This document shows positions 13,956 through 64,000 of a DNA stretch of 64,000 nt, piece by piece. The position numbers and the translations under genes were made by a program. The stretch comes from Armatimonadota bacterium. GTDB taxonomy: Bacteria > Armatimonadota > SYMT01. A model generated the notes under the pieces. It was not told the origin of the DNA, ran no database searches, and was given only the letters and a program-made list of their open reading frames with translations. Numbering within the stretch: position 1 is the first letter of the stretch; every line of letters begins with the position of its first letter. The stretch lies in the NCBI GenBank assembly GCA_046292385.1, contig JBKBRF010000025.1, positions 1 to 64,000 of the forward strand, given 5' to 3'.

Positions 13956-14031
13956 CGGTCTGAGGCCGCCGCTGAGGGCAATGGTTGAAGCTGGAACGCC
14001 CGAGCACACCTGCGGGAGGTGACATTCATCA

Positions 14032-15685: not shown

Positions 15686-15709
15686 GGAGGGGTCGTCCCC
15701 GCCTCGGCT

Positions 15710-44654: not shown

Positions 44655-45491
44655 ATGTCACCCTGCGCCATCGTGAACGCGGGGCCGGGGGCATGGGCGT
44701 TCGAGGAGATCGCGGGGCGGCTCTCTCGGGTGCTCTGGCTGGAGGTCGCCTCCGAGCCGGCCGAGCGGAGCTACTTGCTGGGATGGGATGATCCGGATCC
44801 GCCGGAGACGGAGCTGTTCATCCCGTTCCAGGCGGTCGTTCTCGCCTCGGACAAGCGGCTGCAGGCGGAGCTGTTCCGGCGGCACGGGATCGCCTGTCCC
44901 CGCACGGAGCTGCTCCCCTCCCCGGCCGAGGTGGAGCGGTTCCTGCGCCGCGAAACCGGTTCCCCGTGGGTGTTGAAGTACCCCACCGGCTGCGGCGCCT
45001 CCGGCCACCGGCTGATCGGCGCCGGCGATCCGGTCCCGGCCGACTGGCCGCGTCCCTACGTGCTCCAGGAGCTCGTTCGGATGGAGCGGCCGGAGGTCTA
45101 TCGCCAGTACGGCGCCGGTGGTGAGACTTTTGGCTGGAACGTGCGGCGGTTTCCCGCGGGAGCGCGCCCGTCTCCGTGGGTCGCCCACGCCCGCGGCGCG
45201 CGGTACGAGCTGCCGGGCGACGCTCCGCCCGAGGCGGAGGAGCTGGCGCGGCAGACCCTCCAGGCCGCCGGGCTGCTCGACTCGTTCGGCTGCGTCGACC
45301 TCTTGCGAAACGAGGCGGGCCGGTGGCTCGTGCTGGAGGTCGGCACCGACGGTGTGTTCAACCACGTCGACCGCGACCTGGGTCTCCCGCGCGAGGAGGC
45401 CGAGCTGGACCAACGGCTGGCGGAGGCGTTCTGGTCCGGGTCCTCTCGGAAGCCGTGGGGCAGCGGTCCCTACCGGCCTCGAGCCGCCTGA
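44655..45491 (+). CDS. ATP-grasp (RimK-like) protein
   Basis: ASDKR, WVLKYP.G.G, YVLQE, GCVD, VLEV. Confidence 0.75.
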   Translation: MSPCAIVNAGPGAWAFEEIAGRLSRVLWLEVASEPAERSYLLGWDDPDPPETELFIPFQAVVLASDKRLQAELFRRHGIACPRTELLPSPAEVERFLRRETGSPWVLKYPTGCGASGHRLIGAGDPVPADWPRPYVLQELVRMERPEVYRQYGAGGETFGWNVRRFPAGARPSPWVAHARGARYELPGDAPPEAEELARQTLQAAGLLDSFGCVDLLRNEAGRWLVLEVGTDGVFNHVDRDLGLPREEAELDQRLAEAFWSGSSRKPWGSGPYRPRAA

Positions 45492-45680
45492 ACGCGGGAT
45501 CCAAGCGCACCTGGAGAAGGTAATCCAGGCTCCTGGTGCCTAACATGGCGCAAGGGGGCGGGCGACAGCATCCGAAGCCAGCCCCGACTCCAGTTCTTAC
45601 TCCTGTTCCTACCCGACGGCGGATCGAATCCGAGTCCGCTGTCGAGTCAGGGCGGTGAGCTATCTGAGAAAACCAACGCG

Positions 45681-46832
45681 ATGAAGCTTCTCCTCACTCC
45701 CGTCGCCCTGGCTGCCGCCGCAGCGGCCGCGGTGGCGCTGACTGCCGCGCCGGCGGCCCAGAGCGCCCAGGCCGGCGTCAAGCGGACGCAGTTCGGCACG
45801 CTGGAAGACGGCCGCCGAGTCGATCTCTACACCCTCACCAACCAGAACGGCCTGGTCGCGAAGATCACCACCTACGGCGCCATCCTGACGGAGCTGCACG
45901 TGCCGGACAAGAACGGCAAGCTCGGCAACGTGGTGCTCGGCTTCAACAAGCTGCAGCCCTATCTCGACGGCAGCCCGTTCTTCGGCGCCACCACCGGCCG
46001 GGTGGCGAACCGCATCGCCAAGGGGCAGTTCAAGCTCGACGGGCGGACCTACCGGCTCGCGGTAAACAACGGCCCGAACCACCTGCACGGCGGCGAGAAG
46101 GGCTTCGACAAGGTGCTCTGGACCGCCGCGCCGATCGCCTCGCCGCACGGTCCGGCGGTCGAGTTCCGCTACCGCAGCCCGCACATGGAAGAGGGCTACC
46201 CGGGCAACCTCGACACGGCGGTCGTCTACACGCTCACCAACAAGAACGAGCTGCGGCTGGATTACACCGCCACCACCGACCGCGCTACGCCGGTCAACCT
46301 GACCCACCACAGCTACTTCAACCTGGCCGGCTCCGGGAAGATCCTGGACCACGTGCTCTACCTGAACGCGAACCGATACACGCCGTGGGACGACACCTTC
46401 ATCCCCACCGGCAAGATCGCCAGCGTCAAGGGCACCCCGTTCGACTTCACCAAGCCGACGCGGATCGGCTCCCGCTTCAACCGGCTCCGTCCGAACGCGG
46501 CGACGGGCGACCCGGGCGGCTACGACCTGAACTACGTCCTGAACGGCGGGGGCAAGTCGGTGGCGCTCGCGGCGCGCGTCAGCGAGCCGAAGACCGGCCG
46601 CGTGATGGAGATCTACACCGACGAGCCGGGCATCCAGTTCTACACCGGCAACTACCTGGACGGCACCCTCAAGGGCGTCGGCGGGGTCACCTATACCAAG
46701 AACAGCGGCCTCTGCCTGGAGACCCAGCACTACCCCGACTCGATCAACCAGCCGAACTTCCCGTCGGTCGTGCTGCGTCCGGGTCAGATCTACCGGCAGA
46801 CCACGGTCCACCGCTTCAGCGCCGGCAAGTAA
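45681..46832 (+). CDS. galM: Aldose 1-epimerase, secreted
   Basis: GATTGRVANRI, NHLHGG, GYPGNL, NLTHHSYFNL, QFYTGN, CLETQH.PD. Confidence 0.95.
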   Translation: MKLLLTPVALAAAAAAAVALTAAPAAQSAQAGVKRTQFGTLEDGRRVDLYTLTNQNGLVAKITTYGAILTELHVPDKNGKLGNVVLGFNKLQPYLDGSPFFGATTGRVANRIAKGQFKLDGRTYRLAVNNGPNHLHGGEKGFDKVLWTAAPIASPHGPAVEFRYRSPHMEEGYPGNLDTAVVYTLTNKNELRLDYTATTDRATPVNLTHHSYFNLAGSGKILDHVLYLNANRYTPWDDTFIPTGKIASVKGTPFDFTKPTRIGSRFNRLRPNAATGDPGGYDLNYVLNGGGKSVALAARVSEPKTGRVMEIYTDEPGIQFYTGNYLDGTLKGVGGVTYTKNSGLCLETQHYPDSINQPNFPSVVLRPGQIYRQTTVHRFSAGK

Positions 46833-46854
46833 CGCGCGCAGATCGGCCGAACCA

Positions 46855-46886
46855 ACGAAGCCCCGGGACCGCTCCCGGGGCTTCGT
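46855..46886 (+). terminator. Terminator hairpin after galM
   Basis: ACGAAGCCCCGGGA-ccgc-TCCCGGGGCTTCGT. Confidence 0.7.
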
Positions 46887-46905
46887 CTTGTGGCGAAGCA
46901 ATCTG

Positions 46906-47211
46906 AGGAGCCTGGAGGCGCTGCCGAAGGCAGTGGTGCAAGGCTCCCCTTGTGAAGGCCCCTAGCGAGGGGCCTTTGCTTGAGCCGGACGGAGCGGCCC
47001 GTGAACCGCAGCCCTGGAGCAACCGCAGCCAGCGGTCGCGGAGCTCAGGCTACCGGCGAGCACGCCCGGACCAGCCCGCTAGCGGAGGCGCAGCCGGAGC
47101 GTGAAAGGGCTGTGGGAGGGCCAAGCACGCGTGAGGGCCGCTCCGGGAGGTGAGGGCACGGGGTGGAACTGCGGCGAGATCACGCTCTCGGGCAGTCAGC
47201 GACTGAATCCG
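46906..47211 (+). ncRNA. Unidentified structured element, copy A (RNA or ssDNA; ends approximate)
   Basis: Colinear conserved blocks and covarying stems shared with 62026-62395. Confidence 0.6.
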
Positions 47212-47236
47212 ACATCAAACTAGCCAGGTAACCGCC

Positions 47237-48628
47237 ATGCGAACTATCCTCCCCCTCCTCCTCGCCACGCCGCTTCTCACAGCCGCAGCGCTCCCCGCCG
47301 GAAGCGCGGGAAGCGCCCCACGCGACACTAAGCCCCGCGTGCTCGTGCTCACCGACATCAGCAGCCTCACCGCCGGAGTGCGGGAGCCGGACGACGGCCA
47401 GTCGCTGATCCGCTTCCTGCTCTACAGCTGCCATTGGGACGTGGAAGGGCTGGTCGCCAGCTCGAACATGGGGCACGGGCAGGTGGTCCGCCCGGAGCTG
47501 ATCCGGCAGGCAGTCGAGGCGTACGGAAAGGTGCTGCCGAACCTCCGGAGGCACCACCCGGGCTACCCTTCCGCGGCGGCGCTCATGAACGTCGTCAAGG
47601 CGGGCCAGCCGGTTGCCGATCGCGGCGTGCCGGTGGAGCGGAGCGTGGGCGAGGGGAAGGACACGGAGGCGTCCGAGTGGATCATCCGCCAGGTCGACCG
47701 CCGCGACGACCGGCCGCTCTGGGTGCTGATCTGGGGCGGCTCCGCGGACCTGGCGCAGGCGCTCTGGAAGGTGCGGCAGACCCGCACGCCGGCGGAGGCG
47801 GAGCGCTGGATCTCGCGGGTGCGCGTCCACTCGATCGGCGACCAGGACAGCACCGGCCCGTGGATCCGGGAGCAGTTCCCCACCCTCTTTACCGTGCTGC
47901 GGGGGCGCGCGATCCGCGGGATGTACCGCGGCGGCGACCGCTCCCTCGTCTCGCCGGAGTGGGTGGAGGAGCACGCGCGGAACGGGCACGGACCGCTCGG
48001 CGCGCTCTACCCGAACTACAACGGCGGCGACATCTTTCCCGGCCCGGTCCGCGGGATCAAAGAGGGCGATACTCCCTCGTTCCTCTCGCTCATCCCGAAC
48101 GGCCTGGGCGACCCCGCGCACCCGGAGTGGGGCGGCTGGGGCGGGCGGCTGCGCGTGGAGGGCGAGCGGGAGAACCTGCTGAGCGACGCCATCGACCCCC
48201 ACCCGGACAACGAGAAAGACCACGACCCTCGGATGTCCGGCGTCTACCGCTGGCGGGAGGCGTACCAGGCCGACTTCCAGGCGCGGCTCGACTGGTGCGT
48301 CCGCCCCTACGCCGAGGCGAACCACCCGCCGAAGGTAGAGGTCGCCGGAGCGCTCCGCCGGACGGTCCGGCCCGGCCAGTCCGTCACGCTCGACGCCGGC
48401 CGGTCCACCGATCCGGACCGCGACCGCCTCACCTACCGCTGGCTCCTCCACGAGGCGGGCAGCTACGCCGGACCCGTCGAGATCAGCGACGCCTCCTCCG
48501 CCCGCGCGCGCCTCACCGTCCCGGCCGACGCCGCCGGACGCACGCTCCACGTAGTGGTCGCCGTGCGGGACGACGGCACGCCGGCGCTCACCCACTACCG
48601 GCGCGTGGTGCTCGACTGCCGGCCCTGA
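47237..48628 (+). CDS. DUF1593 (nucleoside hydrolase-like) protein, secreted
   Basis: KPRVLVLTDI, EPDDGQSLIRFLLY, WGG..DLAQAL, KEGDTPSF, GGWGGR, FQARLDW, ANHPP. Confidence 0.9.
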   Translation: MRTILPLLLATPLLTAAALPAGSAGSAPRDTKPRVLVLTDISSLTAGVREPDDGQSLIRFLLYSCHWDVEGLVASSNMGHGQVVRPELIRQAVEAYGKVLPNLRRHHPGYPSAAALMNVVKAGQPVADRGVPVERSVGEGKDTEASEWIIRQVDRRDDRPLWVLIWGGSADLAQALWKVRQTRTPAEAERWISRVRVHSIGDQDSTGPWIREQFPTLFTVLRGRAIRGMYRGGDRSLVSPEWVEEHARNGHGPLGALYPNYNGGDIFPGPVRGIKEGDTPSFLSLIPNGLGDPAHPEWGGWGGRLRVEGERENLLSDAIDPHPDNEKDHDPRMSGVYRWREAYQADFQARLDWCVRPYAEANHPPKVEVAGALRRTVRPGQSVTLDAGRSTDPDRDRLTYRWLLHEAGSYAGPVEISDASSARARLTVPADAAGRTLHVVVAVRDDGTPALTHYRRVVLDCRP

Positions 48629-48632
48629 GGCT

Positions 48633-48713
48633 GTTGCACGTTGGCAAGTTGGCAGGTTTCAGGTTCCGAACCCCGCTCGCCGTGAGCCAGAACCTGCAAC
48701 CTGACAACTTGAA
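48633..48713. repeat. Hairpin element with 7/8-mer arms (GTTGGCAR / AACCTGC)
   Basis: GTTGCAC GTTGGCAA GTTGGCAG GTTTCAG GTTC ... GAACCTGC AACCTGAC AACTTGAA. Confidence 0.75.
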
Positions 48714-48741
48714 TCCGTGAACGCACCGGAACGGAGATTCC

Positions 48742-49446
48742 ATGCCGACCATTGTCGCTCACCGCGGGGGCGCCGGGCTGGCGCCGGAGAACACGCTCCC
48801 TGCCTTCCGGAACGCGCTGCGGCTCGGGGTCCAGGCAGTGGAGCTCGACGTGCGCCTGACCGCCGATGAGGTGCCGGTCTGCTTCCACGACGAGCGGCTG
48901 GGGCGCATCACGCCCGCGCAGGGCCGGATCGCCGACTGGCAGTGGGCGCGGCTGCGGGAGGTGGCGGTGCAGTCGGGCGCCTTTGGCGGGGCCTATCCGG
49001 ACGCCCGCATCCCCTCACTGGAGGAGGTCCTCGCCGGGTTTCCGGGCGACTGCCGCGTGCTGGTCGAGCTGAAGCCGGATCCTGCGCGCGCCGATCTACT
49101 CGTCCGACGGACGCTGGAGGTGATCGGCGGTGCAGCGAGCCGGTGCCGGCTCATCTCCTTCGACCCGGAGCTGCTGCGGCGGGTGCGCGCGGCCTGCCCG
49201 GGCGCGGCGCTCGGAGTGCTTGCGGGGCCGCGGGCGGCGGCGTCGCTCTTCCCGCTGGCCCGGGAACTGGGAGCGGAAGCGGTACAGCCGCAGTCCCGAC
49301 TGGTCGACCCGGCGCTGGTGCAGGCCGCGCGAGAAGCAGGTTTCCTGGTGAACGCCTGGACGGTAAACACAGCTGACGAGGGGCGGCGGTTGGCCGCCCT
49401 GGGAGTGGACGAGATCACCACCGACTATCCGGACCTGTTCCTATGA
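48742..49446 (+). CDS. Glycerophosphodiester phosphodiesterase
   Basis: AHRGG, PENT, VELDV, FHD, VELK, ISFD, AWTVN, ITTDYP. Confidence 0.93.
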   Translation: MPTIVAHRGGAGLAPENTLPAFRNALRLGVQAVELDVRLTADEVPVCFHDERLGRITPAQGRIADWQWARLREVAVQSGAFGGAYPDARIPSLEEVLAGFPGDCRVLVELKPDPARADLLVRRTLEVIGGAASRCRLISFDPELLRRVRAACPGAALGVLAGPRAAASLFPLARELGAEAVQPQSRLVDPALVQAAREAGFLVNAWTVNTADEGRRLAALGVDEITTDYPDLFL

Positions 49447-50720
49447 TCACCGAGTCTGCAAGACTGGCTACTCCCGACGAAGTGCTGCGGCACCTCCGCC
49501 GGAACGCACCGAACCCGGGGCAGGTGCTCCCGGACTACTCGGGATACTCGATCTGCAACGTGAGCCAGTTGATCCTGCGCAACTTCGGGTTGAAGAACCG
49601 CTGTCCGGAGGTGCTGTCCGGCGTGCTCGACCGCACCTACTCCCGCGTGCTGCTGGTGATCATGGACGCCTTCGGCTGGAACCAGCTCCACACCTGGGTG
49701 GACGAGCTGGGGCCGCTGAACCGCTTCTACAGCGCGGCGAAGCGCGTGCCGCTGACGGTGACGTTCCCGTCCACCACCACCGTGGCCCTCACCGGCATCT
49801 ACACCGGCCTCTCCCCCGCGGAGCACACGATTACGGGTCACTACCTCTTCCTCAAAGAAGTGGGCGCGGTGATGGACGTGCTCCGGTTCTCTCCGGCGGA
49901 CGATCCCCGGCGAGAGGTCTACGCGGAGCGCGGGGTCGACGTGCACCGGCTCTTTCCGATGTACACCGTCTTCGAGCCGCTGAAGCAGGCGAGCTTGAAG
50001 GGCCTCTCCCTGACCCGCGGCATCTTCACCAACACGGCGCTCGGCTGGCTCCACCACGTCGGCGCGGACGTGATCGGCTACCTGACGGATGCGGACATGT
50101 TCGTGCACCTGCGCAACACGCTGCGCACCGACCGCCGGGAGGGGCTCACCGTGCTCTACTGGGACGTGGTCGACATGCTCTCCCACGAGTACGGCCCGTT
50201 CTCGGAGATGGTCCGCAGCGCGGTCGACCAGTTCTTCTACGGCCTGGAGCGCGAGGTGCTGCGCGGCCTCACCCGCGAAGAGCGGGCAGACACGCTGATG
50301 CTGCTGGTGGCCGACCACGGCCAGGTCGACGCGCACCCGCACGAGGCGGTCTGCCTTTCGGAAGAGCCGCGCCTGAAGGAGCTGCTCCTGCTCCCCCCGA
50401 CCGGCCAGTCGCGCGCCGCCTACCTCTACGCGGAGCAGGGCAAGGTGGAGGAGCTCGGGGAGGAGCTGCAGCGCTTCGAGGGCCGGCTCTCGATCCGCCG
50501 CAGCGAAGAGGCGCTGCAGGCAGGGCTATTCGGCCCCCCGGAGCACGCCGACCGCATCCGGAGCCGCGTCGGCGACTACCTGGCGATCGGCAGGGGCGGC
50601 GCGCAGCTCCTCGGCGCGGAGGTCCACCGGGACCAGCTCTCGCTCAAGGGCCGCCACGGCAGCCTGAACGAAGACGAGATGCTCGTCCCGCTCCTGGCTG
50701 TGCCATTGGACGTCTTCTGA
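49443..50720 (+). CDS. Alkaline phosphatase superfamily (type I phosphodiesterase-like) protein
   Basis: MDAFG, TFPSTT, D..SH.YGP, VADHG, GRHGSL..DEM.VP. Confidence 0.88.
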   Translation: MITESARLATPDEVLRHLRRNAPNPGQVLPDYSGYSICNVSQLILRNFGLKNRCPEVLSGVLDRTYSRVLLVIMDAFGWNQLHTWVDELGPLNRFYSAAKRVPLTVTFPSTTTVALTGIYTGLSPAEHTITGHYLFLKEVGAVMDVLRFSPADDPRREVYAERGVDVHRLFPMYTVFEPLKQASLKGLSLTRGIFTNTALGWLHHVGADVIGYLTDADMFVHLRNTLRTDRREGLTVLYWDVVDMLSHEYGPFSEMVRSAVDQFFYGLEREVLRGLTREERADTLMLLVADHGQVDAHPHEAVCLSEEPRLKELLLLPPTGQSRAAYLYAEQGKVEELGEELQRFEGRLSIRRSEEALQAGLFGPPEHADRIRSRVGDYLAIGRGGAQLLGAEVHRDQLSLKGRHGSLNEDEMLVPLLAVPLDVF

Positions 50721-50738
50721 GGGACCGGGAACCGGGAA

Positions 50739-50921
50739 TTCACCGCAGAGACGCGGAGAGCGCGGAGAGAACCGGAACCAGGGGAGGGGCCTGGCCCGCC
50801 TGACGAGTCCGGACAGCGGCCCCGAAGTTTGTCACTTCTGGCTCCCCTTTGCGTTCTTGGCGTCTTGGCGGTTCAATCCCGGTTCGGGTTCTCTCCGCGT
50901 CCTCTGCGTCTCTGCGGTGAA
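50739..50921. repeat. Palindromic element with 41-bp imperfect inverted repeats (CGCRGAGR arms) and a nested solo arm
   Basis: 50739-50779 vs 50881-50921 match 37/41 as reverse complements; CTTTGCGTTCTTGGCGTCTTGGCGGTT inside. Confidence 0.8.
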
Positions 50922-50933
50922 GCAGGATCGGGA

Positions 50934-51521
50934 TCAGCAGAGGTCCTGGCGCATCGGCTCCATGGCGCGGCGGAGGGCGCGGAGGGTGCGGCGCATCTGG
51001 CCGGCTACCGCCTGGCGGGTGGTGCCCCACTGGCGGGCGAGGTCGGCCAGGGAGTGGCCCTGGAAGAAGTGCGCCTTGATCAGCTCCTGCTGCTGCGGGC
51101 GCAGGCGGACCATGGCATGGTTCAGCAGCGCCAGCTCCTCGGTGCGGCCGATCTCCCGCTCCGCGCTTTCATCGCGCATCACGTCGACCCACCGCGTCTC
51201 CCCCTCGGAGGTGCCGGTCTCCCGCAGCGCCTCGTCCAGGCTCAGGAGGCGCGCCTGGTGGTTGGAGGCCTGCATCGCCCCGCGCGCGATGGAGCGCTCG
51301 ATCGCCATCGCAGCGAGGGTGGAGAAGCGGAAGCCACGGTCCGGGTCGAACGCCCGGGCCGCGGAGAGGAGGCCCAAGAGCCCCCACGAGACCAGATCGT
51401 CGCGATCGGCGCCGGAGACGGCGTGGCGATCCAAGTAACGGTTCACGCTCCACTCGACCAGACTTCGGTTGTCATTTACCAACCGGCGTACCTCATGGTC
51501 GGGCCGCATCACTGCTGCCAT
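50934..51521 (-). CDS. Sigma-70 family RNA polymerase sigma factor (short)
   Basis: DDLVSWGLLGLLSAARAFDPDRGFRFSTLA (region 2); C-terminal HTH (SLADLARQWGTTRQAV). Confidence 0.85.
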   Translation of the reverse strand: MAAVMRPDHEVRRLVNDNRSLVEWSVNRYLDRHAVSGADRDDLVSWGLLGLLSAARAFDPDRGFRFSTLAAMAIERSIARGAMQASNHQARLLSLDEALRETGTSEGETRWVDVMRDESAEREIGRTEELALLNHAMVRLRPQQQELIKAHFFQGHSLADLARQWGTTRQAVAGQMRRTLRALRRAMEPMRQDLC

Positions 51522-52143
51522 TGCTTGCTTCCTTCCTTGTTCGGATGCCCTCCAGCGCCAGCTCGAAGAGGCGAACCTCATGCTCGGCCAGCGTGCCGGG
51601 GGCGAAGCCGTATGCCCACGTGACCACTGCCTGGAACTGCAGACCCAGAATGAAGCCGGCCAGCTCGCACGGCTCGAGATCGGGGCGGAGCTCTCCGGAC
51701 TGCTGCCCTTCTCGAACCCAGCCCTCTACCATCTCGAAGATCTGCTGGCGGTGCGGCGGCAGCTCTCCCGGCTTCATCCCGCTCAGTGACTTCAAGAGCA
51801 CCGCGCGGGTATGGTCCGGGTCGCGCCCCGGGAACTCCGCCATCAGGGCCAGCCACTGCGCGATCTTCTCGGCAGCGCTCGGCCCGCAGATGCGTCCGTC
51901 CTGGATCGCATCCCGCAAGATCTCCACCTGCAGCTCGCCCATCGCCTGGCAAAGGCTCTCTTTGGTGGCGAAATGGTTGAAGACCGTGCCCCGGGCCACG
52001 TCGGCCCGGTCCGCGATCTCTTCCACCGTCACCTCATCAAACCCCCGCTCCGCGAACAGGTCGAGTGCCGCCTGCAGGATCGTCCGGCGGGTCTCCCGCG
52101 CCTTTCGCTCCCGCCGGCCCTCACGAGCAGCTCCAGCCGTCAT
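51493..52143 (-). CDS. TetR/AcrR family transcriptional regulator
   Basis: RRERK..TR..I..AAL.LF.ERGF..VTVEEIA.RADVARGTVFNHF.TKE. Confidence 0.93.
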   Translation of the reverse strand: MTAGAAREGRRERKARETRRTILQAALDLFAERGFDEVTVEEIADRADVARGTVFNHFATKESLCQAMGELQVEILRDAIQDGRICGPSAAEKIAQWLALMAEFPGRDPDHTRAVLLKSLSGMKPGELPPHRQQIFEMVEGWVREGQQSGELRPDLEPCELAGFILGLQFQAVVTWAYGFAPGTLAEHEVRLFELALEGIRTRKEASNGSSDAARP

Positions 52144-52261
52144 TTGGTTTCTGCCTGTCGTTCCCCAAGCCCAGGACAGTCCGGAAGCCGGGTCAGGCAC
52201 CCGTGCTTAGCCGTTAGTCTATCACTGGACTCCAGGCGGATTTTATGCCGCCGTCTATCGG

Positions 52262-52293
52262 TGACCCGCGGTCATTATAAGACCCAAGTTCAA
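52262..52293 (-). promoter_or_regulatory. Putative tetR promoter: TATAAT flanked by TGACC-N3-GGTCA operator(s)
   Basis: Minus strand reads TTGAACTTGGGTCT-TATAAT-GACCGCGGGTCA. Confidence 0.6.
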
Positions 52294-52608
52294 CGTCGGC
52301 ACATTTTGGGTTACGGATTACCCTCGATTCGCGTTCCGCCCCGCACCAGCGCGGGGAGGTCGCGCGAAGGCGCAGCTCGCCCCTACCTGGAGGAGTCAGG
52401 AGAGCGGCCCACGGATAGCCGCAAAGAGGAAGAGCTCGTCACGCACCCGTGCGGAGCACAGGAACGGAGGCAGATTCGAGGCTTCGGCTCTCGCTTGCGC
52501 CAGTCGTGAGGGCGGTTCGGTAGGTGCGGCGCACTGACGACCCATGAGCCGGAGCGGCCCCTTCCGGGAGGGTACAGCCTGCTTCCGCCCGCCCTTTCGG
52601 CGGCGCGC

Positions 52609-53232
52609 TCACTCCGTGGCGGGCGTTCCGGCGGGGTTGAAGCGGTTCATCGCCGCCTGGAGGCCGTCGGTGACGATCGCCTCCACCGCATCGGCGGCGG
52701 CGCGGATCGAGTCCTGCACCGGCTCCAGCTCCTCGCGCGTGAACTTGCCGAGCACGTGATCGACGGTGCCGCCCTTCGGGCCGGACGGGCGGCCGACCCC
52801 CACGCGCACCCGGGGGAACTCCGTGGTGCCGAGGTGCTGGATCAGGCTCTTCAGGCCGTTGTGGCCGCCGGCGGATCCGGAGGGGCGGATGCGGATCCGG
52901 CCGGGCGGGAGGTCCATGTCGTCGACCACGACGATGATCTCTTCCGGCCGGAGCTGGAGCAGCCGCGCCAGCGGAGCCACGCTCTCGCCGGAGAGGTTCA
53001 TGTAGGTGAGCGGCTTGGCGAGGGCGACGACGGTCTCGCCGATGGCGCCGCGGCCGAAATTCGCCTGCCGCTCCACCTTACGGGTATCGATGCGGTGGCG
53101 CTCGGCGAGGAGGTCCACCACCCGGAAGCCGATGTTGTGGCGCGTGTTGTGGTACTGCGCGCCCGGGTTGCCCAGCCCCACGATCAGGTGTCGGACCGTC
53201 TCGAACGTCGGCTGCCGCCGGAAAAACCGCAT
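52609..53232 (-). CDS. pth: Peptidyl-tRNA hydrolase
   Basis: LIVGLGNPG.QY..TRHNIGF, KPLTYMNLSG, GSAGGHNGLKS. Confidence 0.97.
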   Translation of the reverse strand: MRFFRRQPTFETVRHLIVGLGNPGAQYHNTRHNIGFRVVDLLAERHRIDTRKVERQANFGRGAIGETVVALAKPLTYMNLSGESVAPLARLLQLRPEEIIVVVDDMDLPPGRIRIRPSGSAGGHNGLKSLIQHLGTTEFPRVRVGVGRPSGPKGGTVDHVLGKFTREELEPVQDSIRAAADAVEAIVTDGLQAAMNRFNPAGTPATE

Positions 53233-53245
53233 CGCCTGGCGCGCC

Positions 53246-54220
53246 TCAGAGGTACGGAAGGAAGAGCTCGCTCACGCTGGAGCCCCGATGGATGCGGTCG
53301 ATCGCCTCCGCCAGGAGCGGCGCGACGCTGAGCTGGACGAACTTGCTCTTCAGCTTGCCGTCCGGCTGCGCGATCGTGTCGGTCAGGATCACCTGCTCGA
53401 CGGCCTCGCAGTATTCCAGGCGGTCGACCGCCGGCCCGGAGAGCACGCCGTGGGTGCACGCCACCAGGATCCGGGCGGCGCCGCGCTCCTTCAGCGCCTC
53501 CACGCCGCCGATGATCGAGCCGCCGGTGTCGATCATGTCGTCGATCACGACGCAGGTCTTGCCCTGCACCTCGCCGACCACGCTCACCACCTCGCTGCGG
53601 TTCGGCTCCGGCCGGCGCTTGTGGATGATCGCCAGGCCGGCGTCGAGCTGCTGCCCCAGCGCCTGGGCACGGCCGACCCCGCCCTCGTCCGGGGAGACGA
53701 TGACGACGTTCGAGTCCTTGACGCCCTGGCTGATCAGGTAGTCCGCGATCAGCGGGCCGCCGTAGAGATGGTCGACCGGAATGGTGAAGAAGCCCTGGAT
53801 CTGCTCCGCGTGGAGGTCGATCGCCAGGACGCGGTTGGCTCCGGCCAGGGTCAGCAGGTCCGCGATCAGGCGGGCGGTAATCGGCTCGCGCGGCTTGACC
53901 TTCTTATCCTGGCGGGCGTAGCCGTAGTACGGCATCACCACCGTGATCCGCTCCGCGGATGCGCGGCGGAGGGCGTCGAGGATGATGAGCAGCTCCATCA
54001 CGTGCTCGTTCACCGGCGCCGACGTCGGCTGGATGACGAAGACATCCATGCCGCGCATGCTCTCCTCGATCTTCATCCGCACTTCGCCGTCGCTGAAGCG
54101 GGTGAGCAGCCGGCGGCACGGCTTCATGCCGAGGTGATTGGCAATCGCTTCGGCCAGCGCCTCGTGCGCGCCTCCGGAGAGCACCCGGAGGTTGTCTCCT
54201 TCAATGCCTGCGAATCCCAC
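53246..54220 (-). CDS. prs: Ribose-phosphate pyrophosphokinase
   Basis: FSDGE, PYYGYARQD, DLHAEQIQGFF, VSPD.GG, DDMIDTGGS; GTG after GGGAGG (alternative start 54271). Confidence 0.96.
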   Translation of the reverse strand: MGFAGIEGDNLRVLSGGAHEALAEAIANHLGMKPCRRLLTRFSDGEVRMKIEESMRGMDVFVIQPTSAPVNEHVMELLIILDALRRASAERITVVMPYYGYARQDKKVKPREPITARLIADLLTLAGANRVLAIDLHAEQIQGFFTIPVDHLYGGPLIADYLISQGVKDSNVVIVSPDEGGVGRAQALGQQLDAGLAIIHKRRPEPNRSEVVSVVGEVQGKTCVVIDDMIDTGGSIIGGVEALKERGAARILVACTHGVLSGPAVDRLEYCEAVEQVILTDTIAQPDGKLKSKFVQLSVAPLLAEAIDRIHRGSSVSELFLPYL

Positions 54221-54267
54221 GGTCTTGCCTCCCTCTGCGGGTGCGCTTGCGCTCTGCTGCTCCAGGA

Positions 54268-55659
54268 TCACTCTGCCCCCTCCAGCTCTCTCCGCTTCCG
54301 GGCCCAGCCGGCCTTGTTGACCTGCCGCGCCCGTCCAATGGCGAGATCGTCTGCCGGTACGTCTTCCGTCACCACGCTGCCGGCCGCCACGAAGGAGCCG
54401 TCGCCCACGGAGACCGGCGCCACCAGCGTGGCGTGGCTGCCGACGAACGCCCGCCGGCCGATCTCCGTGCGGTGCTTGTGCTTGCCGTCGTAGTTGCAGG
54501 TGATGGTGCCGGCACCGATGTTCGTCTTCTCCCCTACGAAGGCGTCGCCGATGTAGGCGAGGTGTCCCATGGAGGCGCCATCTTCCACCTCCGCCTTCTT
54601 CAGCTCCACGAAGTTCCCGATCTTGACCTTCCGGCCCACGCGGCAGCCGGGTCGGAGCTGCGCGAACGGCCCGATCTTGCACTCGTCGCCGACCGTGCTG
54701 TCGGTCAGCACCGCCTGCTGCACGGAGACCCGGTCGCCTAGGACGCAGCCGGTGATCCGGGCTCCCGGCCCGATCTCGCACTCCTCGCCGATCTCCGTCG
54801 CGCCGCTCAAGAAGGTCATCGGCCGGATCACGGTGTCGATGCCGATCCGGACGCCCGGCTCGATGTAGGTGGTGGCCGGGTCCTCGATCGTCACGCCGGC
54901 GCGCATCTGCTCCACCAGCACCCGCTTCCGGATGATGGCGGTCGCGGCGGCGAGCTCCACGCGGTCGTTAATACTCAGCCCTACCCGCGGATCGTCGGCC
55001 GTCACGCACTCCACGCGCTCTCCGCCCTCGGAGAGGAGGCGGATCACCTCGGTCAGGTAGATCTCACCGGTGGCGGCGTCCGGCTCTACCCGGGAGAGCG
55101 TTTCCCAGAGCCGGGCGGAATCGAAAACGTAGGCGCCGGCGTTGATCTCCCGGACCGCCAGCACCTCCGGCGCGGCGCCGCGCGCCTCCACGACGGCGCG
55201 GACGGAGCCGTCCTCCGCCCGGACCACTCGCCCGTAGCTGGCGGGGTCCTCCGGGGTCACCGCCAGCAGCGTGCAGGCGGCTCCGGTCTGGGCATGCCGT
55301 TCGCAGAGACGGGAGACAACCTCGTCCGTCAGCAGCGCGTTATCCGCCTGCAGCACCAGGATGGCGCCGCGGGTCTCCTCCAGGCGGGAGCGCGCCGCCA
55401 GGACCGCGTGCCCGGTGCCGCGCGGCTCCGCCTGCACCACGTGCTCCAGCTCCGGCCCCAGCGCCTCGCGCACGGCGTCCGCCTCGTGCCCCACCACCAG
55501 CACCAGCCGCGGGATCCCCAGCCGCCGGCAGATCTCCAGGGGGTAGGCGCCCATCGGCTTCCCGAGAATCCGGTGGGTCGCCTTGGGATAGCGGGACCGC
55601 ATCCGCGTACCCTTGCCGGCGGCGAGCAGCAGGGCGGCGGAAGGGGTTTGGCTGGACAT
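54268..55659 (-). CDS. glmU: Bifunctional UDP-GlcNAc pyrophosphorylase/glucosamine-1-P N-acetyltransferase
   Basis: LAAGKGTRM, GTGHAV, YGRV, EINAG.Y, GNFVE.K, HLAYIGD, NIGAGTITCNYDG. Confidence 0.96.
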   Translation of the reverse strand: MSSQTPSAALLLAAGKGTRMRSRYPKATHRILGKPMGAYPLEICRRLGIPRLVLVVGHEADAVREALGPELEHVVQAEPRGTGHAVLAARSRLEETRGAILVLQADNALLTDEVVSRLCERHAQTGAACTLLAVTPEDPASYGRVVRAEDGSVRAVVEARGAAPEVLAVREINAGAYVFDSARLWETLSRVEPDAATGEIYLTEVIRLLSEGGERVECVTADDPRVGLSINDRVELAAATAIIRKRVLVEQMRAGVTIEDPATTYIEPGVRIGIDTVIRPMTFLSGATEIGEECEIGPGARITGCVLGDRVSVQQAVLTDSTVGDECKIGPFAQLRPGCRVGRKVKIGNFVELKKAEVEDGASMGHLAYIGDAFVGEKTNIGAGTITCNYDGKHKHRTEIGRRAFVGSHATLVAPVSVGDGSFVAAGSVVTEDVPADDLAIGRARQVNKAGWARKRRELEGAE

Positions 55660-55981
55660 GAGCGCGTTCTCCGCGGTCGGAACTCGGCGCCATCCAGGGG
55701 GCGTGCCGCCGGTCGCAGCGCGACGGCCCGGCGGCGACAGTACCGCTTCACCACCGCCAGCGCAGGGTGGCGCGACGGCACCCCACGGCTGCGACGTGGA
55801 GAGTGTATCACCCGGGCCGAGACATCCGCCAAGCGCGCGGCCGGGCCGAGAGGAGGGCGCCGCCGGGAGCCGGGCGAGCGAGACCGCCGGCTCGCCGCAC
55901 GCGCGCAGCCAGGGCTGCCAGTCCCGGGCGGCTCCGGGACGGTGCGGACGACGAGAGCGGCGGCCTCGCGGGAATCTGGCG

Positions 55982-56518
55982 CTACTTCGGGGAGAGCAGC
56001 ATCGTCATCCGGCGGCCTTCCAGCACCGGAGGGCGCTCCACCACGGCGACGTCGGCCAGCGCCGTGGTCAACCGCTCCATCTGCTTCCGGGCAACCTCGG
56101 GATGGCTCATCTCGCGACCGCGGAAGATCAGGGTCACCTGGACCTTGTTGCCTTCCTCGATGAAGCGGCGCGCGTCCTTCACGCGGTACTCGATGTCGTG
56201 CTCTTCCGTGCCGTACCGCATGCGGATGCCCTTCACGTCGACCGTGTGGGACTTCTTCTTGGTCTCGCGCTGCTTCTTGGCCTGGTCGTACTTGTACTTC
56301 CCATAGTCCAGGATGCGGCAGACCGGGGGTTGGGCCGTCGGCGAGATCTCGACCAGGTCGAGCCCCTGGTCCTGCGCGAGCTGGAGCGCGCGGCGCGTCT
56401 CCATCACGCCGAGCTGGTTGCCCTCCGCGTCGATGACGCGGACTTCCGGCACACGAATGCGGAAGTTGAGACGTGGCCCCATGTCGCGCGGGCCGCGTCG
56501 ATCGTTGAAGCGGTTGAT
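55982..56518 (-). CDS. infC: Translation initiation factor IF-3 (predicted ATC start)
   Basis: N.RIR..EVRVI, LDLVEISP...PPVC.I.DYGK..Y, FRGRE; AAGGAAGG RBS 6 nt before ATC. Confidence 0.95.
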   Translation of the reverse strand: MNRFNDRRGPRDMGPRLNFRIRVPEVRVIDAEGNQLGVMETRRALQLAQDQGLDLVEISPTAQPPVCRILDYGKYKYDQAKKQRETKKKSHTVDVKGIRMRYGTEEHDIEYRVKDARRFIEEGNKVQVTLIFRGREMSHPEVARKQMERLTTALADVAVVERPPVLEGRRMTMLLSPK

Positions 56519-56760
56519 AGGTGACCTTCCTTTTTCGACCGCCGCGACCGATATCGCGGCGGGGAACCACTCCGCACACGCCCCAGGGCGGTGCGGACAA
56601 CGGAGAGAGCTATCGATAGCGTTGCACTCTCTCCTACCCGGAATCCTTCCGAATCCCGCCCCAAAACGGGGCAGAAAACCGGGAAGAGTATAGCGTAGCC
56701 TTCTTTCAGCCGCAATGGCCTGGCAGCGGCCTCTTCTCACTGCGAAGGCGTGTCCGAACG

Positions 56761-56796
56761 AACGCGAAGGCGCGAAGATGGCGAAGGACGCGAAGG
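56761..56796 (+). repeat. Solo 8/9-mer tandem array (CGCGAAGG-like)
   Basis: AACGCGAAGGCGCGAAGATGGCGAAGGACGCGAAGG. Confidence 0.55.
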
Positions 56797-56843
56797 GAAC
56801 CGCAACGGACCAGTGCGGCTGCGCGGAGATAGGATGGTTCCTG

Positions 56844-56892
56844 AGCCCGCGCAGGCGGGCTTCGCTCTGAGTAGCGCCGAGTTTACTCGCGC
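56844..56892. repeat. REP-like double hairpin
   Basis: AGCCCGC-gcag-GCGGGCT followed by GTAG-CGCCGAGT-tt-ACTCGCGC. Confidence 0.55.
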
Positions 56893-56931
56893 GAGCCGAC
56901 GCATTCCGGCGGACACTTCCCCCGTTCGCGA

Positions 56932-58044: not shown

Positions 58045-58135
58045 GGTAGGAACACTCCAGGCTGCCGCCATCCTGCTCCGGCTGCGCAGAACCGGGCGGG
58101 GGCGGGTAACATGGCAGACGGTGAGACAAGAACGG

Positions 58136-58885: not shown

Positions 58886-58888
58886 GCC

Positions 58889-59656: not shown

Positions 59657-59889
59657 GCCGCAGTCAACTCACCCGTCGGCGGCCGGGTCACGTCCGGGAT
59701 CGCGGGCGCACCGCAGCAGCTCCACCTCTTCCTTGAAACGGAACCCTGTGGAGCGAAGCCTGAGGGGCGAGCAGGGGGTATTCTGAGAAACGGCGGCGGG
59801 GCTGAGCTGCGTAAAGGATTTTGGGGTGCGGCCGGCGGCCCGTCAACCAACTCTCAACCGACTGCCGGCGCGGCGGCGGGTCTATCTGC

Positions 59890-59918
59890 TTGACCCCCTG
59901 GCCGCGGGTCAATAGAGT
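59890..59918 (+). promoter_or_regulatory. Putative sigma70 promoter with palindromic operator
   Basis: TTGACC-17 nt-TAGAGT; TTGACCC-N9-GGGTCAA overlaps the -35 and spacer. Confidence 0.6.
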
Positions 59919-59964
59919 GGTAGCGGTAGGGCTGCCGCCCGACCGGTCCCGAGGAGTTTTCCGG

Positions 59965-61950
59965 ATGGCGATTCGACCTGCGCTCCTTACGCTTTCGCTG
60001 GTGATCACGCCGGCGCTGGTGATCTACGCGGCCGAGCCGGTCGGCAGCAAGCCTGCCGCCGCCAAAAAGGCGGCGAAGCCCGCGGCGAGCGAGCCGAAGG
60101 CGAAGAAGGTCGACTTCGCTCGCGACGTCACCGCGGTGCTCAAGAAGTACTGCTACAGCTGCCACAACTCGAAGCAGGAGATCGCCAGCGTCAACCTGGA
60201 GCTGCTCACCTCGCAGAAGTCGCTCGCCGAGAAGCGCGACGTCTGGGAGAAGGTGCTCCACGTGATGAAGGCGAGCACCATGCCGCCTCGCAACCTGCCG
60301 CAGCCGACCAAGGCGGAGCGGGAGCGCCTCTCCACCTGGCTCGACGCGCAGCTCTTCGCCGTCAACTGCGACCTGAAGGACCCGGGCCGGGTCACGATGC
60401 GGCGCCTCAACCGCGTGGAGTACGACAACACGGTCCGCGACCTGACCGGTCTCGACGTGAAGCCGTCCGAGCTCTTCCCCTCCGACGACGTCGGCTACGG
60501 CTTCGACAACATCGGCGACGTGCTCACCATCTCGCCGCTGCTGATGGAGAAGTACCTGAACGCGGCGGAGGAGATCGCCGACCGGGCGATCGTCACGCCC
60601 GAGTCCCGCGGCGGCAAGCTGCCGGCGGAGCTGCCGGAATCCCACAGGCGGATCATCACCACCGCCGCCGCGCCGGACGCCTCGCTGGACGACAAGAAGA
60701 AGGCGGCGCGCGCCTCCCTGGCGGAGTTCGGCCGCCGCGCCTACCGCCGCCCGCTGCAGGACGGCGAGCTGGACCGCCTGGTCAAGATCGTCGAGCTCTC
60801 GGTCAAGGACGGCGACAGCTTCGAGCGCGGAATGCAGCTCGCCACGCAGGCGGTGCTCGTCTCCCCGCACTTCCTCTTCCGGGTGGAGCTGGACGGTAAG
60901 GACAAGGATCCGGCTAAGGCGCGCGACCTGAACGGCTACGAGCTGGCGAGCCGCCTCTCCTACTTCCTCTGGAGCACCATGCCGGACGACGAGCTGTTCC
61001 GGCTGGCGGAGAGCGGCACGCTGACCCAGCCGAAGGTGCTGGAAGCCCAGGTCCGCCGCATGCTCGCGCACGAGAAGGCGTGGGCGCTGGTGGAGAACTT
61101 CGGCGAGCAGTGGCTGACGCTGCGGACGCTGAAGACCGCCAGCCCGGACCCGAAGCAGTTCCCCACCTTCAACGACCAGCTCCGGGACGCGATGCTGACC
61201 GAGACGCACATGTTCTTCCAGTCGATCCTGAAGGAAGACAAGAGCGTCCTCGACTTCATCGACGGCAACTACACCTACCTGAACGAGCCGCTCGCGAAGC
61301 ACTACGGCATCGACTTCGTGAAGGGCGACCACTTCCGCAAGGTGGTGCTCACCAACGACCAGCGCCGCGGCGTGCTGACCCAGGCGAGCATCCTCACCAT
61401 CACCTCCAACCCGACGCGGACCTCGCCGGTGAAGCGCGGCAAGTGGGTGCTGGAGCAGATCCTCGGCACCCCGCCGCCCCCGCCGCCGCCGAACGTGCCG
61501 GAGCTGGAAGAGGCGAAGGAAGGCCAGGTGCTGAAGGGCACGCTGCGCGAGCGGATGGAGCAGCACCGGGCGGACCCCGGCTGCGCTTCCTGCCACTTGC
61601 GGATGGACGCACTCGGATTCGGGCTGGAGAACTTCGACCCGATCGGCGCGTGGCGTGAAAAGGATGGCGAGGACCCGATCGACGCCTCCGGCACGCTTCC
61701 GTCCGGCGAGGAGTTCAAGACGCCGGTCGAGCTGATCCAGATCCTCAAGGGCGAGAAGGAGCAGTTCGTCACCCACCTCGCCGGCCAGCTCCTCACGTTC
61801 GGCCTCGGCCGCGGCCTGGAGTACTACGACCGCTGCGCCGTCGACGAGATGGTGGCGAAGGCCGCCAAGGATAACTACCGCTTCTCCACCCTCATCATGG
61901 AGATCGTCAAGAGCGACCCGTTCCGGAAGAAGCGGGGAGACGGGAATTAA
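59965..61950 (+). CDS. Cytochrome c + DUF1587/DUF1595/DUF1592/DUF1588/DUF1585 protein
   Basis: CYSCH, RRLNRVEYDNTVRDL, YGFDNIG, LASRLSYFLWS.MPD, TSPVKRGKWV, CASCH. Confidence 0.92.
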   Translation: MAIRPALLTLSLVITPALVIYAAEPVGSKPAAAKKAAKPAASEPKAKKVDFARDVTAVLKKYCYSCHNSKQEIASVNLELLTSQKSLAEKRDVWEKVLHVMKASTMPPRNLPQPTKAERERLSTWLDAQLFAVNCDLKDPGRVTMRRLNRVEYDNTVRDLTGLDVKPSELFPSDDVGYGFDNIGDVLTISPLLMEKYLNAAEEIADRAIVTPESRGGKLPAELPESHRRIITTAAAPDASLDDKKKAARASLAEFGRRAYRRPLQDGELDRLVKIVELSVKDGDSFERGMQLATQAVLVSPHFLFRVELDGKDKDPAKARDLNGYELASRLSYFLWSTMPDDELFRLAESGTLTQPKVLEAQVRRMLAHEKAWALVENFGEQWLTLRTLKTASPDPKQFPTFNDQLRDAMLTETHMFFQSILKEDKSVLDFIDGNYTYLNEPLAKHYGIDFVKGDHFRKVVLTNDQRRGVLTQASILTITSNPTRTSPVKRGKWVLEQILGTPPPPPPPNVPELEEAKEGQVLKGTLRERMEQHRADPGCASCHLRMDALGFGLENFDPIGAWREKDGEDPIDASGTLPSGEEFKTPVELIQILKGEKEQFVTHLAGQLLTFGLGRGLEYYDRCAVDEMVAKAAKDNYRFSTLIMEIVKSDPFRKKRGDGN

Positions 61951-62003
61951 AGGCAAAAGGCTAAAGGCAGAAGGCTAAAGGGGCTGAAGGCAGAGGCTGA
62001 AGG
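61949..62003 (+). repeat. Solo heptamer tandem array (RAAGGCW)
   Basis: AAAGGCA AAAGGCT AAAGGCA GAAGGCT AAAGG..., starting in the stop codon. Confidence 0.75.
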
Positions 62004-62025
62004 TTCACGCCCGCCGGAACCGCTG

Positions 62026-62395
62026 GCGTCCGGAGGAGCAGCCGGAGGCTGGGCCGGAGGACGGCACTTGTGACCACCCCTGGGCGCCAGGGGTGGTTGC
62101 TCGAAGGGCCGGGATTCAGCCCGTGAACCGAGCTACGGTTGAGATCCGTAGCTGCGGCGCGGGAAAAGCCTGCCGAGGTGAACTCCCGGAGCGGCCCGCT
62201 AACGGAGCGAAGCGGAGTGTGAAAGGGCCGGCGGAGGGCCGACGCCGCGGGAGGGCTGAATCCCGGCACAAGGGCGCGGGGTCGGACACTCGGAATGGAC
62301 GCCGCCGGGCGGAAGGCGTCGTAAAGCTCTGGTGTCAGGGTTCGAGCCGGACAGATGACGCTGTCGCCGAGCAAGCTCCGCCCGCGGCCCCGACA
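62026..62395 (+). ncRNA. Unidentified structured element, copy B (RNA or ssDNA; ends approximate)
   Basis: Homologous to 46906-47211; perfect 15-bp long-range stem 62108-62122/62253-62267. Confidence 0.6.
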
Positions 62396-62542
62396 ACTTT
62401 GGCTTCGCTGGCGGCTCGCACTCTGTTCGCAGGGTTTTCGCCGGGAAACCTAAAACAACTCAACGGCGGGCTCGCTCGCCCGGTGTCCTAGATCGGGTAT
62501 AGGGTAGATACGAGTATTCCCTTCGGTAACGAGGAAGCGTGC

Positions 62543-63889
62543 ATGATCGACAAGCAACTGCCACGGCGGACGTTCCTGCGTGGGATGGGGACCGCCATGT
62601 CCCTCCCGCTGCTGGAGGCGATGCTCCCGTCCTCCGCGCTCGCCGCGCCGGACGTGAAGAAGGCCCCCCAGCGGATCGCATTCCTCTTTGTGCCGAACGG
62701 CGTGCACATGCAGGACTGGACGCCCAAGACCGAGGGCAGCCTGGAAGAACTGCCGTTCGTGCTGGAGCCGCTCAAGGAGATCCGGCACAAGGTCTCCGTC
62801 CTGACCAACCTGACGCACGACAAGGCGCGGCCGAACGGCGATGGCCCGGGCGACCACGCCCGCTCCGCCTCCGCGTTCCTGACCGCCTCCCAGCCGCGGA
62901 AGACGGCCGGGGCGGACATCCACGTCGGCGTCTCCGTAGACCAGGTGGCGGCGAAGCATATCGGCCGCAACACCCGCTTCGCCTCTCTCGAGCTCGGCTG
63001 CGAGCGGGGCCGGCTGGCCGGCAACTGCGACTCCGGGTATAGCTGCGCCTACTCCAACGCGATCTCCTGGCAGTCCCCCACCACGCCGGTGGCGAAGGAA
63101 GTCGACCCCCGCCTCGTCTTCGAGCGGCTCTTCGGGAGCGGCAGCAAGGAGAGCGCCGAGGCGCGGGCCAAGCGCGAGCGGAACCGGCTGAGCATCCTCG
63201 ATTACGTGATGGACGACGCCAAGCAGCTCCAGAAGCAGCTCGGCGTGAAGGACCAGCAGAAGCTGGATGAGTACTTCACCGGCGTCCGCGAGATCGAGAA
63301 GCGGATCGAGCTGGCGCAGCAGGGGCAGAGCACCGTGAGCGCCAGCGGCTACACCCCGCCGAGCGGCATCCCGAAGGACTACGCGGAGCACCTGCGGCTG
63401 ATGGCAGACATGATGGTGCTGGCGTTCCAGACCGACCAGACCCGCGTGCTCACCTTTATGCTGGCCAACGAGGGGAGCAACCGGCCGTACCCGATGCTGG
63501 AGATCCCGGACGGTCACCACGACCTCTCGCACCACGGCGGCGACAAGGTGAAGCACGACAAGATCCGGCGGATCAACCGGTTTCACGTGGAGACGCTGGC
63601 CTACGCGCTGCAGAAGCTCGACAGCATCAAGGAAGGCGACCAGACGATTCTCGACAACTCGATGATCGTCTACGGCTGCGCGATCAGCGACGGCAACCGC
63701 CACAACCACGACGAGCTGCCGGTCCTGCTCGCGGGCCGCGGCGGCGGCTGGATCGACTCCGGGCGGCACATCGTCTACCAGGACGAGACCCCGATGGCGA
63801 ACCTCTTCGTCACGATGCTGAACCGCGCGGGCGTGAAGACCGACGCCTTCGGCGACAGCACCGGGCCGCTCGACATGCTCGACAAGTAG
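62543..63889 (+). CDS. DUF1552 family protein, Tat-like leader
   Basis: RRTFLRG.G..MSLPLLEAM, FVPNG, SVDQ.AA, SLELG, CDSGYSCAY, HH.LSHH, DGNRHNH. Confidence 0.93.
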   Translation: MIDKQLPRRTFLRGMGTAMSLPLLEAMLPSSALAAPDVKKAPQRIAFLFVPNGVHMQDWTPKTEGSLEELPFVLEPLKEIRHKVSVLTNLTHDKARPNGDGPGDHARSASAFLTASQPRKTAGADIHVGVSVDQVAAKHIGRNTRFASLELGCERGRLAGNCDSGYSCAYSNAISWQSPTTPVAKEVDPRLVFERLFGSGSKESAEARAKRERNRLSILDYVMDDAKQLQKQLGVKDQQKLDEYFTGVREIEKRIELAQQGQSTVSASGYTPPSGIPKDYAEHLRLMADMMVLAFQTDQTRVLTFMLANEGSNRPYPMLEIPDGHHDLSHHGGDKVKHDKIRRINRFHVETLAYALQKLDSIKEGDQTILDNSMIVYGCAISDGNRHNHDELPVLLAGRGGGWIDSGRHIVYQDETPMANLFVTMLNRAGVKTDAFGDSTGPLDMLDK

Positions 63890-63911
63890 TCGAGCCGGTA
63901 ACGACGCACTG

Positions 63912-63960
63912 AAGAGGCCGTGCCCGCCGGGTGATCTCCCGCGCGGGCACGGCCTCTTTT
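63912..63960 (+). terminator. Rho-independent terminator
   Basis: AAGAGGCCGTGCCCGC...GCGGGCACGGCCTCTT followed by a T-run. Confidence 0.8.
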
Positions 63961-64000
63961 CGTCTCCGGCGGAGCTCCCCGCCGTCCATCACCGGCAGCC

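Follow-up and report, generated by a model that had tools for sequence, protein, structure and literature searches.

The window, i.e. the whole 64,000-nucleotide stretch of DNA that was analysed, contains two copies of a large non-coding element (Table 1). Copy A lies between an aldose 1-epimerase (galM) gene, from which it is separated by a terminator-like hairpin, and a gene for an Sde182_NH-like protein (former DUF1593), as stated in the original prediction. Copy B lies in the 592 bases that separate a DUF1592-family gene from a DUF1552 gene. The sequence at 46906–47211 reads as first described, and the claimed colinearity of conserved blocks in the two copies is reproduced by a MAFFT alignment with 78% mean column identity. 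A covariance model recognises copy A with an E-value of 6e-76 and copy B with 1e-51, a likeness far above chance, and both fold more stably than their own shuffled sequences (z −1.9 for copy A, z −4.5 for copy B). No Rfam 15 family reaches its gathering score anywhere in the 64-kb window. In E-value mode, copy A yields only weak matches, located on the neighbouring terminator hairpin, and ten divergent copies from relatives and metagenomes match no consistent family, in agreement with the claim that the element belongs to no known RNA family. Promoter and terminator scans around both copies are empty. Positions 61951–62004, immediately downstream of the DUF1592-family stop codon and just 5′ of copy B, are occupied by imperfect 7-base tandem units of the AAGGCNN type. 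Tracts with a period of about 7 bases occur commonly in the genome's long intergenic gaps and show no excess beside the element (36 of 135 copies vs. a control mean of 39.4 for other long intergenic gaps).

Table 1. The two copies of the element, their flanking genes and the parts of the fold in copy A (positions in the window).
Feature	Position	Strand	Basis or detail
Aldose 1-epimerase gene, upstream of copy A (context)	45681..46832	+	PF01263, E 2e-94
Terminator-like hairpin 3′ of epimerase gene (context)	46855..46886	+	sequence reading; weak hairpin-type Rfam matches
Copy A, core element (type A)	46906..47195	+	nhmmer 46907–47181; covariance model 46901–47194, 274.6 bits, E 6e-76
P1 5′ hairpin	46907..46947	+	outer stem 46907–13/46941–47; inner 46919–25/46929–35; 3-base GAA loop
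Conserved unpaired linker (CUUGUGA type)	46948..46955	+	near-invariant in alignments
P2 hairpin	46956..46975	+	8/11 pairs change on both sides; 95% of cells paired
P3 long-range helix closing central domain	46977..47158	+	strands 46977–47000 and 47135–47158; 13/15 pairs change on both sides
Variable region with copy-specific small hairpins	47009..47062	+	aligns poorly
Inner domain, three nested helices	47065..47120	+	helices 9–11 97–99% paired, with compensatory changes
3′ hairpin	47160..47172	+	helix 12, 86% paired, many G-U
Sde182_NH-like (former DUF1593) gene, downstream of copy A (context)	47237..48628	+	PF07632, E 6e-82
DUF1592-family gene, upstream of copy B (context)	59821..61950	+	PF07631 and partner domains
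Copy B, core element (type B)	62019..62313	+	nhmmer 62025–62296; covariance model 62019–62313, 190.2 bits
DUF1552 gene, downstream of copy B	62543..63889	+	PF07586

From 5′ to 3′, the element consists of the P1 hairpin, a conserved linker, the P2 hairpin, a central domain closed by the long-range helix P3, and a 3′ hairpin. Inside the P3-closed domain, a variable region is accompanied by three nested helices, the junctions of which are nearly invariant. The four stems named in the original prediction (46907–13/46941–47, 46956–63/46968–75, 46990–47000/47135–47145 and CAGCCC/GGGCTG) are present in both copies with differing sequences, and a multi-helix fold conserved through covariation is supported by RNAalifold and by an alignment of 92 distinct sequences. 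Both approaches detect compensatory pairs in the two helices of P1. The closing pair of P3 (alignment columns 80/257) is C-G in 80 copies, U-A in 25 and A-U in 24. Within the inner domain, the junctions are conserved as GCUAGC and GUGAAAGG types, together with GGA/GGA internal loops; in their symmetric form, these loops are present in some copies and replaced by three Watson–Crick pairs in others. In 72 of 135 copies, P1 ends in a three-base G-N-A loop with a C-G closing pair, and the innermost helix has the same kind of tip in most cases. Four-base loops of the GNRA or UNCG kind are not prominent, an unusual trait in a large structured RNA. Examples of a G-N-A tip and of GGA/GGA sites in copy A are found at 46926–46928 and 47084–47098.

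The two copies first noticed proved to be two of at least 135 in the genome (G000) of this bacterium from soil, with 7,043,135 bases in 91 contigs. BLAST with copy A detects at least 40 full-length matches with 74–84% identity among the best 40 of 173 candidates scored. Three rounds of nhmmer yield 156 matches, 135 of them near-full over the 275-position profile, and the covariance model R1 (built from 32 copies, with 294 positions and 58 pairs) gives at least 148 matches among 150 candidates scored. At about 275 bases each, the 135 copies account for about 0.5% of the 7.04 Mb. Copies or partial copies lie at or near the ends of several contigs (C16:245, C26:292, C60:152, C68, C28:204–273, C74 and C77). 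The repeat probably breaks the assemblies of these genomes, and the partial copies at contig ends make the copy count a lower bound.

The many further homologs found with the covariance model share the fold, and its conservation can be followed in two alignments. RNAalifold on 32 copies gives 58 pairs, 21 of which have changes on both sides. A wider alignment, fitted to R1 and containing 94 matches (92 distinct) from this genome, two relatives and metagenomes, has standard pairs in 93.5% of cells vs. 78.8% after shuffling, and none of 500 shuffles reaches the observed value. Sliding the partners by 1–3 columns leaves only 38–52% of cells paired, and changes on both sides are found in 43 of the 58 pairs (628 cells). 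An independent MAFFT alignment of the 135 near-full copies agrees, with 93.1% standard pairs vs. 78.2% when shuffled and 416 G-U vs. 79 A-C combinations; the 49 pairs counted here were picked from the same data, which is a weakness of this comparison. A naive all-against-all covariation scan of column pairs is swamped by subfamily signal. The sense strand is G-rich (G 42%, C 31%) and folds more stably than the antisense strand in all 68 copies tested, about half of the total, with RNA as well as DNA energy parameters. Thus, the structure belongs to one strand.

No two copies are identical. Nearest neighbours are 83% identical in the median and 95.6% at most, which gives no sign of recent movement, and about 50 copies have no relative above 82% identity. 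Between nearest neighbours, differences at paired sites are about half as frequent as at unpaired ones (0.041 vs. 0.083, 0.10 vs. 0.17 and 0.15 vs. 0.24). Both partners of a pair differ in 313 cases, compared with the roughly 75 that independent sites would give, and pairing survives in 271 of these; about one in two of the one-sided differences disrupts a pair, a sign of some decay. Copies with a nearest relative at 78–82% identity retain 93% of their pairs, and pairing drops to 84% in the 14 most isolated copies. The fold is therefore kept by purifying selection and not by recent copying, and its retention in old copies fits a function at each site better than purely selfish decay after insertion.

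The element has a narrow distribution. With R1, 15 and eight copies are detected in G005 and G006, which represent other genera within the family of G000; G004 has a single weak partial match, and G001–G003 have no match. Among 151 sampled Armatimonadota genomes, a match at E ≤ 1e-4 is present in three (G000, G005 and G006) and was not found in the other 148, with stricter filters and the best 12 candidates per genome scored. BLAST over 61 genomes points to the same restricted distribution. A first exact pattern, searched in one genome for each of 185,579 species, found nothing and was too strict. A relaxed exact pattern, which matches 113 copies in G000 and has 15 matches in eight loci of two relatives, detects 16 loci in the same set, 12 of them in two metagenome-assembled genome (MAG) records; four single matches in unrelated taxa were rejected, as R1 gives no match there at E ≤ 1. 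In metagenomes, the relaxed pattern detects 42 loci, 21 of which are confirmed by R1 (22 matches, 34–122 bits). No long match to G000 exists in the sequences flanking the 42 loci, which hence provide no orthologous filled or empty sites. Two MAG records with model-confirmed copies (L090, L096, L097 and L100) are titled 'Actinomycetes bacterium' and 'Armatimonadota bacterium', and the former title may be a mis-assignment. A literature search for such an element in Armatimonadota returned nothing relevant, which does not show that none is in print.

Copies of the element are independent of their neighbouring genes. According to a crude GC3-based gene caller (4815 genes, 79% coverage), 119 of the 135 copies are clear of genes; 64 are oriented like the downstream gene and 71 opposite to it. 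The 81 solo copies are spread evenly over tandem-sense (21), tandem-antisense (20), convergent (18) and divergent (16) contexts, with six unclassified at contig ends, and the 27 doublets described below lie in convergent (10), divergent (8) or mixed (9) gaps. No protein family recurs among the 210 distinct flanking proteins. With at least 135–148 dispersed copies in random orientation to the flanking genes, the view, implied by the original prediction, that a rare, two-copy structured RNA is linked to the adjacent genes is not supported, and the position of copy A between galM and the DUF1593 gene is incidental.

The sites occupied are diverse. On contig C8, about 20 copies are interspersed among housekeeping genes, including those for CTP synthase, EPSP synthase, phosphofructokinase, SMC, alanine racemase and fructose-bisphosphate aldolase. 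On contig C40, a prophage at about 17000–40000 (L072, L073), recognisable by genes for a terminase, an SPP1-type portal, capsid, head and tail completion proteins and a Rad52-like recombinase, contains seven copies between its genes, all in antisense orientation to them. Close to the prophage but outside it, an eighth copy is found on the strand of the seven. Related terminases (up to 60% identity) are encoded on 80 viral contigs totalling 888 kb, none of which contains a copy. The genome contains seven pairs of DUF1592-family and DUF1552 genes, four of which overlap or abut, suggesting translational coupling, and two of which have gaps of about 330 bases; only the pair in the window (59821–63889) holds an element. 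At the loci of the relatives, the 210 flanking proteins of G000 have only eight weak matches (28–45% identity), and element positions are read from this comparison of sequences as not conserved between genera. These scattered contexts, the prophage, the split gene pair and the lack of synteny argue for insertion into many unrelated sites and against a gene-specific regulator. Contigs from four DNA runs on 45000–64000 are short pieces; none bridges either copy, and no joint skips the element. Among 22 public runs, no RNA data set is listed as containing the region. The orientation relative to GC skew is weakly biased (51 vs. 30, p 0.026, counting the non-independent C40 cluster), and outside C40 neighbouring solo copies are on the same strand in nine cases and on different strands in nine. 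Upstream of the 5′ end, nothing is conserved beyond about 8 bases.

Besides solo copies, there are doublets: 54 of the 135 copies lie in 27 adjacent pairs, every one of them head-to-head. Doublet partners are always of different types, A and B, with identities of 0.52–0.79 (mean 0.62), and their spacers fall into families; in some doublets, 26–32 bases separate the two 5′ ends. The identity to the nearest neighbour is higher for doublet copies than for solo copies (0.868 vs. 0.819, p 1e-6). Twelve doublets are copies of one unit of about 840 bases with subfamily-specific 3′ extensions and sharp ends in unrelated flanks. Inspection of their boundaries, where the ends are uncertain by about 2 bases, detected neither a terminal inverted repeat nor a target-site duplication, which speaks against a MITE, and no empty site was found for the 12 boundaries examined. 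Head-to-head pairs are also present in G005, and same-strand tandems in G005 and G006. When folded as a single strand, nine of 26 doublets are predicted to pair mainly arm-to-arm (131–222 inter-arm vs. 7–99 intra-arm pairs, calculated with no shuffled-arm control). This predicted pairing conflicts with the intra-arm helices supported by covariation.

An enzyme that could move the element was sought in the genome. There is no match to a reverse transcriptase and none to the TnpB zinc-ribbon domain PF07282, for which the control is positive in 8 of 14 genomes; the RRXRR domain of IscB (PF14239) also has no match, with a control that is likewise silent. The genome contains two IS110 transposases and five Y1_Tnp matches. 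No R1 copy is present within about 1.5 kb on either side of 12 Y1 loci in G000, G002, G005 and G006, and the number of Y1 genes in the family does not track the element, as G002 has four Y1 matches and lacks the element. Thus, none of the candidates checked (Y1, IS110, TnpB, IscB and reverse transcriptase) is linked to it.

Several known systems resemble the element in part. A review describes bcr1 of the Bacillus cereus group as a transcribed repeat of about 155 bp, flanked by 5-bp direct repeats, with positions that vary between strains and compensatory changes that keep a two-hairpin, cruciform-like RNA fold, and regards it as a special class of mobile sequence (PMC3184786). Like bcr1, the element is multi-copy, intergenic and non-coding, occupies non-conserved positions and retains a single-strand fold through compensatory changes. 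In contrast to bcr1, it has a core of about 270–295 bases with at least eight helices and conserved junctions, no direct repeats are seen, and its host belongs to an Armatimonadota lineage. REPINs are presented in two reports as inverted REP doublets around a spacer, which are over-represented, randomly placed in extragenic space and more conserved than singlets; hairpins are predicted for them in single-stranded DNA or mRNA, and they are associated with RAYT transposases (PMC3116915; PMC3337134). REP units are simple palindromes of about 20–40 bases that adjoin a RAYT gene, whereas the units described here are about ten times longer and multi-branched, share only about 62% identity between the partners of a doublet, and flank no Y1 gene. 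In BIMEs, two diverged types of unit are combined with specific linkers. The element shares with REPINs and BIMEs the many intergenic copies, their random placement outside genes, the inverted doublets that are more conserved than singlets, and the two diverged types with specific linkers. HEARO and the guide RNAs of IscB and TnpB are large structured RNAs carried by IS200/IS605-type elements. As in HEARO, a highly structured unit of about 300 bases is associated with mobile DNA and is present, in some hosts, in many copies per genome; unlike HEARO, the element has no Rfam match, no TnpB-type domain is found in the genome and no open reading frame recurs beside it. At the population level, the family thus behaves like bcr1 and REPINs, while it fails defining features of each, namely the size and simplicity of the unit, the alike arms, the neighbouring RAYT gene and the direct repeats.

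The reading favoured here, with a probability of roughly 0.55, is that both copies are members of a family of interspersed, non-coding structured repeats of the bcr1/REPIN/BIME kind, restricted to one lineage, and are not gene-specific regulators. The element would be a non-autonomous repeat with a core of about 270–295 bases, which spread through intergenic space as solo copies and as head-to-head doublets, the latter composed of the two diverged types around a short family-specific spacer. The folded G-rich single strand is most likely what is recognised when the element propagates, and the same strand would act when it is transcribed with or towards its neighbours. Transcription could supply this strand as RNA; alternatively, it could be single-stranded DNA that becomes exposed when the element is replicated or transposed. 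The data demonstrate the copy number, the narrow distribution, the covarying fold and its strand, the independence from neighbours, the organisation in doublets and signs of insertion, whereas mobility in trans, the nature of the moving enzyme, the choice between RNA and single-stranded DNA, and any effect on neighbouring genes are inferred.

A less probable explanation is a multi-copy family of independently transcribed RNA genes that act in trans or as protein scaffolds, in which doublets would be divergent gene pairs sharing a central promoter region and selection would maintain each copy for the use of its RNA by the cell. Such a family would account for the fold kept in old, divergent copies, with paired sites evolving at half the rate of unpaired ones, for the conserved junctions and recurrent G-N-A hairpin loops, and for a sense strand that is always the more stable one. 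An orientation that ignores the neighbours is expected of stand-alone genes, and the head-to-head arrangement also occurs in a second genus. However, only about 8 bases are conserved upstream, no sigma-70-like promoter or intrinsic terminator was found, and the 5′ ends of some doublets are only 26–32 bases apart. Copies inside a prophage and at an operon junction also speak against RNA genes, and about 150 functional copies of one RNA would have no precedent.

It is similarly doubtful that the element is REPIN/BIME-like folded single-stranded DNA, in which the fold or the doublet hairpin would be the substrate of a Y1 (HUH) transposase encoded elsewhere and the doublet the replicative unit. 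The doublets are always inverted and more conserved than singlets, as described for REPINs in the reports cited above (PMC3116915; PMC3337134). The genome has five Y1_Tnp matches, all eight C40 copies are on one strand, and the strand bias fits single-stranded DNA, where G-T wobble is tolerated. Three-base G-N-A loops closed by C-G, which recur in the element, are notably stable in DNA mini-hairpins. These points are countered by the Y1 loci of three genomes, which are not flanked by the element, and by Y1 counts that are independent of its presence (four in G002, which has no element). Furthermore, the units are about ten times as long as REPs and have conserved unpaired junctions, the doublet partners are the most dissimilar types (mean identity 0.62) and not near-identical arms, and the GC-skew bias is weak (51 vs. 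30, p 0.026) and gone among neighbours without C40.

A cis-regulatory leader or riboswitch for the gene downstream of each copy, which is how the site of copy A just 5′ of the DUF1593 gene would naturally be read, is very improbable: copy A ends about 40–55 bases before the next start codon on the same strand, and about 11 of the 64 same-way copies end within 60 bases of a start called by the crude gene caller, but the orientation is opposite to the downstream gene in 71 of 135 copies, solo copies are even over four contexts, the downstream genes share no family, copies occupy convergent gaps and antisense positions within the prophage, and no Rfam riboswitch matches.

A bolder version, which is also considered unlikely, holds that most copies are kept in place by selection because each makes a functional large structured RNA, or that the 270-base fold is the single-stranded DNA substrate of an undescribed transposition system. 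An RNA of this kind may serve, for example, as a scaffold that binds proteins, or it may be ribozyme-like and propagate itself. If about 150 functional RNAs were indeed kept in place, they would constitute a new class of ornate bacterial RNA with a copy number far above any known, and either the RNA class or the transposition system would represent new biology and not another small palindromic repeat.

As an interspersed repeat family, which is the preferred reading, the element is unusual in having a branched fold with at least eight helices and conserved junctions, which makes it unusually large and complex. To our knowledge, most bacterial interspersed repeats described to date are short palindromes or consist of two hairpins, with lengths of up to about 150–300 bp. 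Compensatory evolution is still continuing between the closest copies of the present family. More than 150 paralogues, together with those of relatives, provide a natural data set for solving a large nucleic-acid fold by covariation, and the family allows a study of whether selfish replication or use by the host explains the persistence of such repeats. Annotators who meet one or two copies will mistake them for a new riboswitch or small RNA.

No copy is located within 3 kb of the two CRISPR arrays of G000. On contig C3 of G005 (L084), the region at about 8600–17000 contains two type I-E CRISPR arrays with a period of 61 beside cas1, cas2 and cas6e, and each array is followed by two tandem copies of the element, all four on the strand of the cas genes.
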